A stretch of 64,000 bases of DNA from Shigella phage TB004: sequence record MW822011; one strand, given 5' to 3'. This document shows positions 23,318 through 27,577 of this stretch, one piece after another (position 1 is the first letter of the stretch; each line of letters begins with the position of its first letter). A program made the translations under genes and the position numbers. The notes beneath the pieces were generated by a model. That model was given only the letters and a program-made list of their open reading frames with translations, searched no databases and had not been told where the DNA came from.

Positions 23318-23682
23318 ATGACTCGTATTAATTTGACTTTAGTATCTGAACTTGCTGATCAACATTTAATCGCGGAATACCATGAATTGCCGCGTGTTTT
23401 TGATATAATTCGTAAACACGCGGCAAATGGAAAAATGATTATAATCCATGCAAATCAGCTATTAAGTTGAGTCAACAACGACTCGATGAAAAAATTTTAA
23501 TGAAGCCGCATTGGTATAAGTATTACGGCAAAAATATTTACATTCAAATAACATGGGAACAAGCTGGACCTCATGATTCTGTGAGGGATTCCCGCCAACC
23601 TGTAATAAGGTCGAGCCCAAGTGCGGTAATGGGTAAATACAGAAATGGACAATTCATGCGCCACGGAATGGCCCAAATTTAG
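23318..23682 (+). pseudogene. denV: denV (endonuclease V, pyrimidine-dimer glycosylase) with internal deletion and frame change
   Basis: N-terminal 46 aa [17 protein letters not shown]... then stop at 23470; C-terminal remnant SQQRLDEKI..KPHWYKYYGK in another frame. Confidence 0.65.
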
Positions 23683-24232: not shown

Positions 24233-24558
24233 TGACAGACACGCAACTTTTCGAATATCTTTATTTTTCGCCAAAAACTATTAAAAATAAATTGGTGAAT
24301 CATTTTGAAATTTTGGCAAATAACAACGTCTTGAGCGAATTTTATCCTAAGCAATACAAATTACAAAAAGGTGTATTCAAAGGATGCAGAGTTTTGTGCA
24401 CTGCTCCTAATGCAAGATTAATGAATAAAATTCCATATTTTACCATGGAATTTATTGATGGGCCTTTTAAAGGACTAATTACCCAAAGTTTAATGGCATA
24501 TGATTCTGAGCCATTTTTAATTAAAGAGCAATCTTGGATAAATTTATTTTCTAATTGA
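24229..24558 (+). CDS. hypothetical protein (109 aa)
   Basis: ATG-initiated ORF overlapping the upstream stop. Confidence 0.4.
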
Positions 24559-24566
24559 GAGGTTAT

Positions 24567-24929
24567 ATGAAAGCATATCAAATTCTTGAAGGCACGCATA
24601 AAGGTACTATTTATTTTGAAGACGGTATTCAAGCACGAATTATTGTCTCTAAAACTTTTAAAGAGGACTCTTTTGTAGACCCAGAAATTTTCTATGGTTT
24701 GCATGCCCGTGAAATTGAAATTGAAACACAACCTACAGTTAAAATTGAGGGTGGTCAACACCTGAACGTTAACGTTCTGCGTCGTGAAACTCTGGAAGAT
24801 GCAGTTAAGCATCCGGAAAAATATCCACAGCTGACCATCCGTGTATCCGGTTATGCAGTTCGCTTTAACTCTCTGACTCCGGAACAACAGCGCGATGTTA
24901 TCGCTCGTACCTTTACTGAGAGCCTGTAA
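24567..24929 (+). CDS. autonomous glycyl radical cofactor (GrcA/YfiD-like)
   Basis: C-terminal [55 protein letters not shown], essentially the E. coli GrcA glycyl-radical domain. Confidence 0.85.
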
Positions 24930-25150
24930 TGGCAAAGATAATTATTGAAGGTTCTGAAGATGTGTTAAATGCTTTCGCCGAGTGGTTTAGTAATTCAGGC
25001 GAACAGCAATTTAATGAAGCGTGGAATATGGGTGATATTGATGGAATTTATCCTACGACAGAAATTTCTGTTCAAGGATATGGAATTCATGAGCCTATTC
25101 GTTTAGTTGAATATGATTTAGGTACTGGTGAGGAAGTAAAATATGATTGA
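24929..25150 (+). CDS. hypothetical protein (73 aa)
   Basis: ORF in the denV-regB interval. Confidence 0.4.
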   Translation: MAKIIIEGSEDVLNAFAEWFSNSGEQQFNEAWNMGDIDGIYPTTEISVQGYGIHEPIRLVEYDLGTGEEVKYD

Positions 25151-25409
25151 AGATATTAAGGGTTATAAGCCACATACTGAAGAGAAAATCGGTAAAGTGA
25201 ATGCTATTAAAGACGCTGAAGTTCGTTTAGGACTTATCTTTGATGCTTTATACGACGAATTCTGGGAAGTGCTAAATAATTGTGAAGACTATGAATTCGC
25301 GAAGAATTATGCTGAAAGCATCGATCAGTTAACTATTGCTAAAACGAAACTCAAAGAAGCCAGTATGTGGGCTTGTCGTGCTGTGTTCCAACCAGAGGAA
25401 AAATATTAA
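25143..25409 (+). CDS. hypothetical small helical protein (88 aa), syntenic with the T4 vs.3-vs.5 interval
   Basis: ORF; position only. Confidence 0.4.
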
Positions 25410-25687
25410 TGGCTCAATTAAGCGCAGGGTTTGGTTATGAGTATTATACTGCCCCTCGTCGTGTATCTGTTGCTCCTAAGAAAATTCAAAGTCTTGATGA
25501 CTTCCAGGAAGTAGTCCGTAAAGCTTTCCAGGACTATGCGCGTTATCTTAAAGAAGATTCACAGGACTGTCTCGAAGAAGATGAAATTGCTTACTATGAG
25601 CAGCGTCTTGAACAGCTTAAAAACCTACATGAGGTTCGTGCAGAAGTTTCAAAGTCTATGAATAAATTGATTAGATTTAAAGAATAA
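25409..25687 (+). CDS. hypothetical small protein (92 aa)
   Basis: ATG overlapping the upstream stop. Confidence 0.4.
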
Positions 25688-25721
25688 CTGTTTACTTTTC
25701 CTCTTGACTGTGGTATAATTT
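25687..25721 (+). promoter_or_regulatory. T4-type early promoter
   Basis: GTTTAC ... TGTGGTATAAT. Confidence 0.55.
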
Positions 25722-25746: not shown

Positions 25747-26208
25747 ATGACTATCAACACAGAAGTTTTTATCCGTCGAAATAAGCTCCGTCGTCACTTT
25801 GAGTCGGAGTTTCGTCAAATTAACAATGAGATTCGTGAGGCATCAAAAGCAGCAGGGGTCTCATCGTTTCATCTAAAATATTCTCAACATCTTCTTGATC
25901 GTGCAATTCAACGGGAGATTGATGAGACATATGTTTTTGAATTATTCCACAAAATAAAAGACCATGTTTTAGAAGTTAATGAATTCCTGAGTATGCCTCC
26001 ACGCCCTGATATTGACGAAGATTTTATTGATGGTGTTGAATATCGTCCTGGGCGTTTAGAAATCACAGATGGAAATCTTTGGCTTGGATTTACAGTTTGT
26101 AAACCTAATGCGAAGTTCAAAGACCCGTCGCTTCAATGCAGGATGGCAATTATCAATAGTCGTCGTTTACCGGGAAAGGCTTCTAAAGCAGTAATTAAAA
26201 CTCAATGA
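25747..26208 (+). CDS. regB: RegB endoribonuclease
   Basis: 153-aa ORF MTINTEVFIRRNKLRRHFESEF...; size and position. Confidence 0.7.
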   Translation: MTINTEVFIRRNKLRRHFESEFRQINNEIREASKAAGVSSFHLKYSQHLLDRAIQREIDETYVFELFHKIKDHVLEVNEFLSMPPRPDIDEDFIDGVEYRPGRLEITDGNLWLGFTVCKPNAKFKDPSLQCRMAIINSRRLPGKASKAVIKTQ

Positions 26209-26761: not shown

Positions 26762-27101
26762 AATTTTGGTTTTATGTATAGGATTAATTTCATTTTCTGC
26801 TTCTGCGTCAGCAGATACATCATATACTGAAATTAGAGAATATGTAAACCGTACTGCCGCGGATTATTGTGGGAAAAATAAAGCATGCCAAGCTGAATTT
26901 GCGCAGAAATTAATATATGCATATAAAGACGGAGAAAGAGATAAAACAAGTAGATACAAGAACGATACTTTATTAAAACGATATGCTAAAAAGTGGAATA
27001 CCTTAGAATGTTCAGTTGCGGAGGAGAAAGATAAAGCCGCTTGTCATTCAATGGTTGACCGTTTGGTAGATTCTTATAATCGAGGATTGAGTACTAGATG
27101 A
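26754..27101 (+). CDS. secreted small protein (115 aa)
   Basis: N-terminal signal peptide MTKILVLCIGLISFSASASA. Confidence 0.45.
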   Translation: MTKILVLCIGLISFSASASADTSYTEIREYVNRTAADYCGKNKACQAEFAQKLIYAYKDGERDKTSRYKNDTLLKRYAKKWNTLECSVAEEKDKAACHSMVDRLVDSYNRGLSTR

Positions 27102-27577
27102 TTGTAAAATATATCAAGGGCGATATTGTCGCCCTATTTCTTCAAGGTAATATTATTGCGCACGGGTGCAATTGTTTTCATACTATGGGTTCAGGTGTAG
27201 CGGGTCAATTAGCAAGGGCCTATCCTAAAATTTTAGAAATAGATAAAACCACTACTGAGTACGGTTCTCGCGATAAATTAGGCGATATGTCTATTGTTTT
27301 TAAACATAGTCCTACGGGATTTGGCATATGCTATAACCTGTATACGCAATACGAACCGGGTCCTAATCTTGATTATGGTGCTTTAGTAAACTGCATGATA
27401 GAATTAAATCTACAGGCAGAAACCCTTTTGTTTAAACCAGTAATTTACATTCCACGCATAGGTTGTGGTATTGCTGGCGGCGATTGGGATAAGGTTTCTA
27501 AATTAATCGACATGTTTACTCCTGATATTGATTTAATAGTGGTGGATTATGAAAGCACATTACCCGCATCCGTTTGA
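27098..27577 (+). CDS. macro-domain protein (ADP-ribose binding/processing fold)
   Basis: HGCNCFHTMGSGVAGQL and IPRIGCGIAGG motifs resembling macro-domain glycine loops. Confidence 0.55.
   Translation: MIVKYIKGDIVALFLQGNIIAHGCNCFHTMGSGVAGQLARAYPKILEIDKTTTEYGSRDKLGDMSIVFKHSPTGFGICYNLYTQYEPGPNLDYGALVNCMIELNLQAETLLFKPVIYIPRIGCGIAGGDWDKVSKLIDMFTPDIDLIVVDYESTLPASV

Follow-up and report, generated by a model that had tools for sequence, protein, structure and literature searches.

Orthologues of the T4 nucleotide-signal sponges Acb2 and TadIV-1 beside the conserved acidic protein Vs.5 in Shigella phage TB004

Gene content of the vs.5-vs.4-vs.3 block

We analysed a stretch of 64,000 nucleotides (nt) from Shigella phage TB004 (sequence record MW822011; hereafter the window) and examined three small open reading frames (ORFs) that lie between a GrcA-like gene and regB. 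These ORFs correspond to vs.5, vs.4 and vs.3 of phage T4. The block very probably encodes two nucleotide-signal sponges, Acb2 (Vs.4) and TadIV-1 (Vs.3), together with a real and conserved protein, Vs.5, that we judge not to be a sponge. Both sponges are already known: their families have been characterised experimentally and identical alleles are present in GenBank, and their identification here adds no new biology.

The three genes are on the plus strand, and each starts with ATG. The vs.5 orthologue (24929..25150) encodes a small acidic protein of 73 amino acids (aa) that belongs to phrog_1986. The acb2 or vs.4 orthologue (25143..25409) encodes 88 aa and, by homology, a cyclic-dinucleotide sponge directed against the cyclic-oligonucleotide-based antiphage signalling system (CBASS). 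The tadIV-1 or vs.3 orthologue (25409..25687) encodes 92 aa and, by homology, a sponge for N7-cyclic ADP-ribose (N7-cADPR) directed against type IV Thoeris. For this third gene the mechanical call began at GTG 25367, yet every homologue begins with MAQ at ATG 25409, which is also the start annotated in T4. There are no spacers between the genes: a TAATG combines the stop of vs.6 with the start of vs.5, another combines the stop of vs.4 with the start of vs.3, vs.5 runs 8 nt into vs.4 (ATGATTGA), and a purine-rich stretch lies a few bases 5′ of each start.

The flanking genes are also on the plus strand. Upstream, vs.6 (24567..24929) encodes a GrcA-like glycyl-radical protein (Pfam Gly_radical, E 2.3e-18) that is identical to T4 Vs.6 at 118 of 120 residues; downstream, regB (25747..26208) encodes the endoribonuclease (Pfam REGB_T4, E 1.4e-68; 152 of 153 residues identical to T4 RegB). 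The original prediction, made from the letters of the window, had placed three ORFs of 73-92 aa between a GrcA-like gene and regB and had assigned them by synteny to the T4 vs.3-vs.5 interval. The coordinates, the strand and both flanks are confirmed, and gene order and protein identities agree with T4 vs.6-vs.5-vs.4-vs.3-regB. Aligned to the T4 reference, the order extends to denV, vs.8, vs.7, vs.6, vs.5, vs.4, vs.3, regB, vs.1 and vs, with identities of 84/88 for Vs.4, 90/92 for Vs.3 and 181/181 for Vs.1. At the DNA level the region shares 98.2% identity with Shigella phage SF2-1, and the 95-99% identity band comprises 494 phage records; T4-like phages that infect Escherichia, Shigella and related hosts account for all of them. 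On this sequence evidence, we identify the interval as the vs.5-vs.4-vs.3 part of a Tequatrovirus (T4-like) genome.

Searches with tblastn found phage records carrying each protein in large numbers (988 for Vs.5, 1247 for Vs.4 and 724 for Vs.3). Pairwise ratios of nonsynonymous to synonymous substitution rates (dN/dS) against 34 related IMG/VR loci were mostly 0.03-0.16, with a single value of 0.24; all ranges given here are drawn from unsaturated comparisons (dS below about 1.5). Because of this wide occurrence and of dN/dS values well below 1, we take all three ORFs to be real genes and not chance ORFs.

Consensus scans of the plus strand from about 24262 to 25690 returned no promoter-like or terminator-like site. 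Since no such internal site is found, we infer that vs.5, vs.4 and vs.3 are co-transcribed with the upstream genes vs.8, vs.7 and vs.6. Published work in which the vs.8 promoter was used to express Vs.3 to Vs.8 (PMC13243611) fits this arrangement. The 3′ limit of the vs.8-to-vs.3 run is marked by a site resembling a T4 early promoter (25691..25719, plus strand; TTTACT-17-TATAAT with an extended TG in the consensus scan), which lies directly after the vs.3 stop and ahead of regB.

The middle gene encodes an orthologue of the cyclic-dinucleotide sponge Acb2

The original prediction noted that the T4 sponge Acb2 is encoded by vs.4, and the middle ORF bears this out. It has the same length as T4 Vs.4 (88 aa), is identical to it at 84 of 88 positions (95%), and matches PDB entry 7UQ2, the crystal structure of T4 Vs.4 with bound cGAMP (cyclic GMP-AMP), with an E value of 2.8e-54. 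Against Pfam PF24729, Acb2_Tad1_hairpin, it scores 70.9 bits (cutoff 27; E 1e-19) and covers all 58 profile positions, and it also hits phrog_717 (E 5.8e-32), the PHROG given in the literature for homologues of Vs.4. We conclude from these comparisons that the middle ORF is the Acb2/Vs.4 orthologue.

The residues on which T4 Vs.4 depends are known from structural and genetic work. T4 Vs.4 is a hexamer that binds three molecules of cGAMP with a dissociation constant (KD) of about 30 nM (Jenson et al., PMC10097602). Y8 and F82 stack on the bases, Y8, H11, K23 and R79 make polar contacts, and L29, A66, A73 and A77, with F33, form the hexamer interface; the substitutions T12I, S74N and A77I abolish function (PMC10097602). 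All 12 of these functionally important residues (Y8, H11, T12, K23, L29, F33, A66, A73, S74, A77, R79 and F82) are retained in TB004, with the pocket residues Y8, H11, K23, S74, R79 and F82 and the interface residues L29, F33, A66, A73 and A77 identical to those of T4 Vs.4. By its 95% identity to a protein that was crystallised with cGAMP, the TB004 protein is expected to form the hexamer, to bind cGAMP with nanomolar affinity and to rescue phage from CBASS. In the mechanism that we propose, paired N-terminal regions of the hexamer would enclose three molecules of 3′3′-cGAMP, or of another cyclic dinucleotide, through stacking by Y8 and F82 and contacts from H11, K23 and R79, and trapping of the signal would deprive CBASS effectors of their activator.

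Some members of the family have a second pocket, for cyclic trinucleotides. The founding Acb2 of Pseudomonas phage PaMx33 (PDB 8H2J/8IXZ, 'p26') shares the hairpin family with the TB004 protein, and its Y11 and K26 align with Y8 and K23, although overall similarity is weak (E about 0.05). PaMx33 Acb2 also binds cyclic triadenylate (cA3) through R67 and T74, whereas the T4-type protein, in which D61 corresponds to PaMx33 R67, does not: T4 Acb2 binds cyclic dinucleotides and neither cA3 nor cAAG, even as a D61R mutant (Cao et al., PMC10312549). TB004 Acb2 carries D61 and T68, as T4 Acb2 does, and does not match the R67 and T74 of the second pocket. It should not bind cyclic trinucleotides for this reason; the second pocket marks a subgroup and not the Acb2 family as a whole. 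The TB004 and T4 proteins thus agree in genomic position, length, pocket, interface and D61/T68.

The four differences from T4 Vs.4 (A43V, D45N, C50Y and L60I) lie in a variable mid-section of the protein, and the identical allele occurs in phages ime09 and SF2-1. In close T4 relatives (L001-L007), the substitutions in Acb2 are concentrated at residues 43-52 and at residue 60. Acb2 is also more variable than either neighbour, most matches being 90-95% identical as compared with 95-99% for Vs.5 and Vs.3.

The third gene encodes an orthologue of the N7-cADPR sponge TadIV-1

Phage T4 vs.3 has been reported to be both necessary and sufficient against type IV Thoeris, and its product was named TadIV-1 (Chen et al., Nat Commun 2026, PMC13243611; April 2026). 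The T4 protein binds N7-cADPR with a KD of about 216 nM and, when denatured, gives the ligand back intact. Two-helix hairpins pair to make up the dimer, and its pocket is formed by a disordered N-terminal loop, in which R17, R18 and K24 matter; homologues longer than 80 aa are active and short ones (~70 aa) are inactive (PMC13243611).

The third ORF of the TB004 block is identical to T4 Vs.3 at 90 of 92 positions (98%), the sole differences being N38K and T64E, and matches PDB entry 9WIW (UPEC07 TadIV-1) over its full length with E 4.9e-38. R17, R18 and K24 are present, and with 92 aa the protein is of the long form, above the 80-aa limit, as is T4 Vs.3. The crystallised UPEC07 protein (101 aa) differs by a 9-residue insertion in the N-terminal loop that is absent both here and in T4. 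An AlphaFold2 model of Vs.3, built with 18 homologues, has a disordered segment at residues 1-21 (predicted local distance difference test score, pLDDT, below 50) followed by helices at 29-53 and 57-91. The model thus appears to agree with the published two-helix hairpin and disordered N terminus, a comparison made by description and not by superposition. We conclude that the third ORF is the TadIV-1/Vs.3 orthologue and, by homology, of the long, active form.

From its orthology with the T4 protein, TB004 Vs.3 is predicted to form a homodimer and to sequester N7-cADPR without degrading it. The flexible N-terminal loop of the helical-hairpin dimer, with R17, R18 and K24, would capture N7-cADPR, the type IV Thoeris signal, and the caspase-like effector would not be activated.

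A different function is suggested by database labels. Several GenBank records name homologues of the third ORF 'Endoribonuclease RegB' or 'endoribonuclease RegB T4-bacteriophage encoded', and PDB entry 9WIW lists its molecule as 'Endoribonuclease'; from these labels one might take the third ORF for a RegB-type endoribonuclease. We give this reading almost no credence. Vs.3 has no similarity to the genuine RegB encoded next to it (BLASTP E 17), Pfam REGB_T4 matches only that next gene, and the paper describing 9WIW reports a non-enzymatic sponge from which N7-cADPR is released intact (PMC13243611). The RegB label on Vs.3 (25409-25687) and on its homologues (for example L001 2410-2688 and L002 1410-1688) is a propagated mis-annotation.

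Weighing the assignment of the sponge pair

The assignment of the two genes draws on orthology, conserved residues, agreement in fold, synteny and purifying selection, all of which are observed here. Several points weigh against it. Ligand binding and immune inhibition by these exact alleles are extrapolated from the literature. Confidence in the model of Vs.3 is moderate (mean pLDDT 65.7), and this short helical hairpin found zero matches by Foldseek in the PDB (releases to 2026-04-08, which may not include 9WIW), a result that says little about the fold. Finally, L60F was a hit in a T4 CBASS-sensitivity screen (PMC10097602), and TB004 Vs.4 has L60I at the same position. L60F Acb2 nevertheless still inhibited CapV in vitro (PMC10097602). 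We do not expect L60I to matter, given that the change is conservative, that it is natural in SF2-1 and ime09, and that L60F is active in vitro.

The same position bears on whether A43V, D45N, C50Y and L60I together alter the ligand range of Acb2 or its visibility to decoy systems such as Panoptes. Such an effect would be in keeping with the higher variation of Acb2 relative to Vs.5 and Vs.3 in close relatives and its clustering at 43-52 and 60, with the emergence of position 60 in the CBASS screen, and with the selection that Panoptes exerts against functional Acb2. We nonetheless consider it highly improbable, since the pocket and interface residues are all unchanged, dN/dS is still 0.06-0.16, and L60F kept its activity in vitro. 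The preferred assignment thus remains that of a T4-type Acb2 beside a T4-type TadIV-1.

Vs.5 is a conserved acidic protein that does not resemble a sponge

The first gene of the block differs from its neighbours in composition and in fold. Vs.5 has an isoelectric point (pI) of 4.05, with 15 acidic (Asp/Glu) and 3 basic (Lys/Arg) residues, and it spans phrog_1986 end to end (E 6.3e-43). The invariant positions of the family are F16, W19, F20, G24, E25, Q26, E30, G50, V60, E61, Y62, T66 and E68, and dN/dS values of 0.03-0.14 indicate purifying selection. An AlphaFold2 monomer model (pLDDT 88) consists of one long helix (residues 10-33) and a beta-hairpin (44-49/58-63), and Vs.5 is thus not simply helical, which corrects the original description of small helical products.

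Database searches returned no meaningful match to Vs.5 in PDB, Pfam or NCBIfam and no structural match to the model; no NCBIfam model was matched by any of the three ORFs, and literature searches on vs.5 gave nothing relevant. A profile search recovered 75 clusters; wherever the source was named, it was a T4-like phage of Enterobacterales or a host-labelled assembly. When 1.8 billion cluster representatives were searched exhaustively with HMMER, the matches were five true representatives of the Vs.5 family and two long repeat proteins. One of the latter, the metagenomic protein P0056 (895 aa, FG-GAP-like repeats), carries the motif WFxNxGxQxFxE...GDxDG; its repeat unit is 50% identical to Vs.5 residues 19-42 (24983-25054; WFSNSGEQxFxE...GDxDG) over 24 residues, and seven such repeats raise the overall match to E 2.7e-12. 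The GDxDG portion is not conserved inside the Vs.5 family, and we judge the similarity to be a motif match inflated by repetition and not homology. The other, P0061, is an acidic low-complexity repeat protein whose match to Vs.5 we likewise take to reflect composition, swollen by repetition, and not homology.

Were Vs.5 a nucleotide-signal sponge as well, the block would amount to a cassette of three sponges. In favour of this reading, Vs.5 is small (73 aa), lies directly upstream of two sponges, overlaps the acb2 start and has been conserved alongside acb2 (33 of 34 divergent loci), and its conserved aromatics F16, W19, F20 and Y62 could stack on bases. Against it, 15 acidic residues face 3 basic ones, none of which is conserved, while the published pockets considered here all contact their ligands through basic residues (K23/R79 in T4 Acb2, R67 in PaMx33 Acb2 and R17/R18/K24 in T4 TadIV-1). 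In the family as a whole the aromatics are conserved and no Lys or Arg is, so the pairing of basic and aromatic residues looked for in a nucleotide pocket was not found; a pocket for a phosphate-bearing signal is disfavoured because the protein is strongly acidic and has no conserved basic residue. In addition, when each of Vs.3 to Vs.8 was expressed singly, Vs.3 was the only one to inhibit type IV Thoeris, and Vs.5 did not (PMC13243611). In some phages, moreover, vs.6 separates vs.5 from vs.4, which speaks for synteny rather than strict coupling. No similarity in sequence or fold was found between Vs.5 and the sponges Tad1, Tad2, Acb2, Acb4, Sequestin, Lockin and TadIV-1. A third sponge is therefore very unlikely, and we judge Vs.5, on its sequence features, to be a real conserved gene whose product is not a nucleotide sponge. 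Similarity to known sponges, which the original prediction had proposed as the check on all three ORFs, was thus found for Vs.4 and Vs.3 and not for Vs.5; its broader suggestion of anti-defence candidates stands for Vs.4 (Acb2) and Vs.3 (TadIV-1, a second published sponge) and falls for Vs.5 as a sponge.

A role for Vs.5 in binding proteins is easier to reconcile with its properties. Vs.5 may be an acidic accessory protein, acting in counter-defence or host takeover, whose target is a basic or nucleic-acid-binding host protein and not a small molecule. Consistent with this are its pI of 4.05 together with conserved Glu and aromatic positions, its compact and confidently modelled fold (pLDDT 88), its location in an accessory region where two genes for counter-defence are already found, and its confinement to T4-like phages of Enterobacterales with variable C-terminal extensions, as is typical of accessory genes. 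The basis of the proposal is, however, entirely composition and neighbourhood, and searches turned up no partner, phenotype or function-assigned homologue. We hold it tentatively, as a possibility that we would not presently expect to be borne out. Somewhat more doubtful still is the more specific proposal that Vs.5 joins the two sponges in counter-defence, with a small alpha/beta fold that would be new and with a host immune protein in place of a nucleotide signal as its target, and that vs.5-vs.4-vs.3 is a compact immune-evasion cassette of three genes in T4-like phages; its supporting context is that Vs.5 is acidic, conserved in about 990 T4-like genomes and packed upstream of two sponges. 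An acidic protein-binding accessory or counter-defence factor would be our best, and speculative, guess at what Vs.5 does. Well conserved beside two sponges, Vs.5 is a reasonable though unproven candidate for an anti-defence role.

Longer forms of Vs.5 exist. C-terminal extensions, which bring the total length to 102-164 aa (phrog_17468), occur in Klebsiella- and Enterobacter-type T4-like phages; examples are L028 (3001-3492) and L018, L020, L022 and L025 (3001-3312), with the proteins P0063, P0067, P0082 and P0104. The idea that these forms are fusions to a known sponge or domain was not borne out: the extensions of the 102-103 aa and 163 aa forms have no Pfam match and belong to phrog_17468, a family without an assigned function. 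Phage PG7 has an annotated protein of 156 aa in which a Vs.7-like N-terminal part is joined to Vs.5; this is probably a read-through or a gene-call artefact.

T4 itself has the same gene (phrog_1986) at the same position, and the TB004 DNA is near-identical to it, but the T4 reference annotates a frameshifted vs.5 of 58 aa as compared with 73 aa here. In the reference gene (NC_000866 63381-63557; L003 2382-2558) one base is missing after codon 17, where GCC reads GC. The base is missing only in the old records X04567, AF158101 and NC_000866; it is present in every resequenced T4 (T4T, KJ477684-6, MT984581, OL964735 and the OZ records) and in TB004, giving 73 aa. The 58-aa form most likely stems from a legacy sequencing error of one base, and the T4 annotation of vs.5 should read 73 aa.

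Variation of the block among T4-like phages

In 33 of the 34 IMG/VR loci that carry vs.5, vs.4 follows it, and vs.6 intervenes in some phages. While all but one of the 34 loci have acb2, the content of the vs.3 slot varies: it may hold a long form, a short form or no vs.3. The long, active-type vs.3 occurs in L004-L007, L012, L013 and L015. In 12 loci (L008-L011, L014, L016, L018, L020, L022, L026, L030 and L034) the vs.3 match is without the N-terminal 11-25 residues, and two of these, L020 and L022, each have a 69-aa ORF at the vs.3 position, of the type reported to be inactive. The remaining 15 loci (L017, L019, L021, L023-L025, L027-L029, L031-L033 and L035-L037) gave no vs.3 match. Short vs.3 forms that match only query residues 25-92 are found in other phages. 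We conclude that the neighbourhood is a conserved backbone with variable accessory content and not a strict three-gene module.

TB004 would have, side by side, intact T4-type inhibitors of CBASS (cyclic dinucleotides) and of type IV Thoeris (N7-cADPR). Knowledge of this sponge pair helps to predict host range and sensitivity to decoy-sensing systems such as Panoptes, from which T4 escapes through mutation of acb2.

Neighbouring genes

Two further genes near the block are of note. At 23318-23560 the window has a remnant of denV, which encodes endonuclease V: after roughly the first 38 codons, some 190 nt present in T4 are deleted internally, and the C-terminal part (…RLDEKI…WYKYYGK) resumes in a different frame. 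SF2-1, the closest relative, is without denV altogether. Because denV is a remnant here and is missing from SF2-1, the phage is probably without a pyrimidine-dimer glycosylase. Downstream, at 27098-27577, the orthologue of tk.4 encodes a protein with a macro domain (Pfam Macro; 32 bits, cutoff 22). This gene lies about 1.4 kb downstream of the anti-Thoeris sponge gene, and macro domains act on ADP-ribose derivatives.

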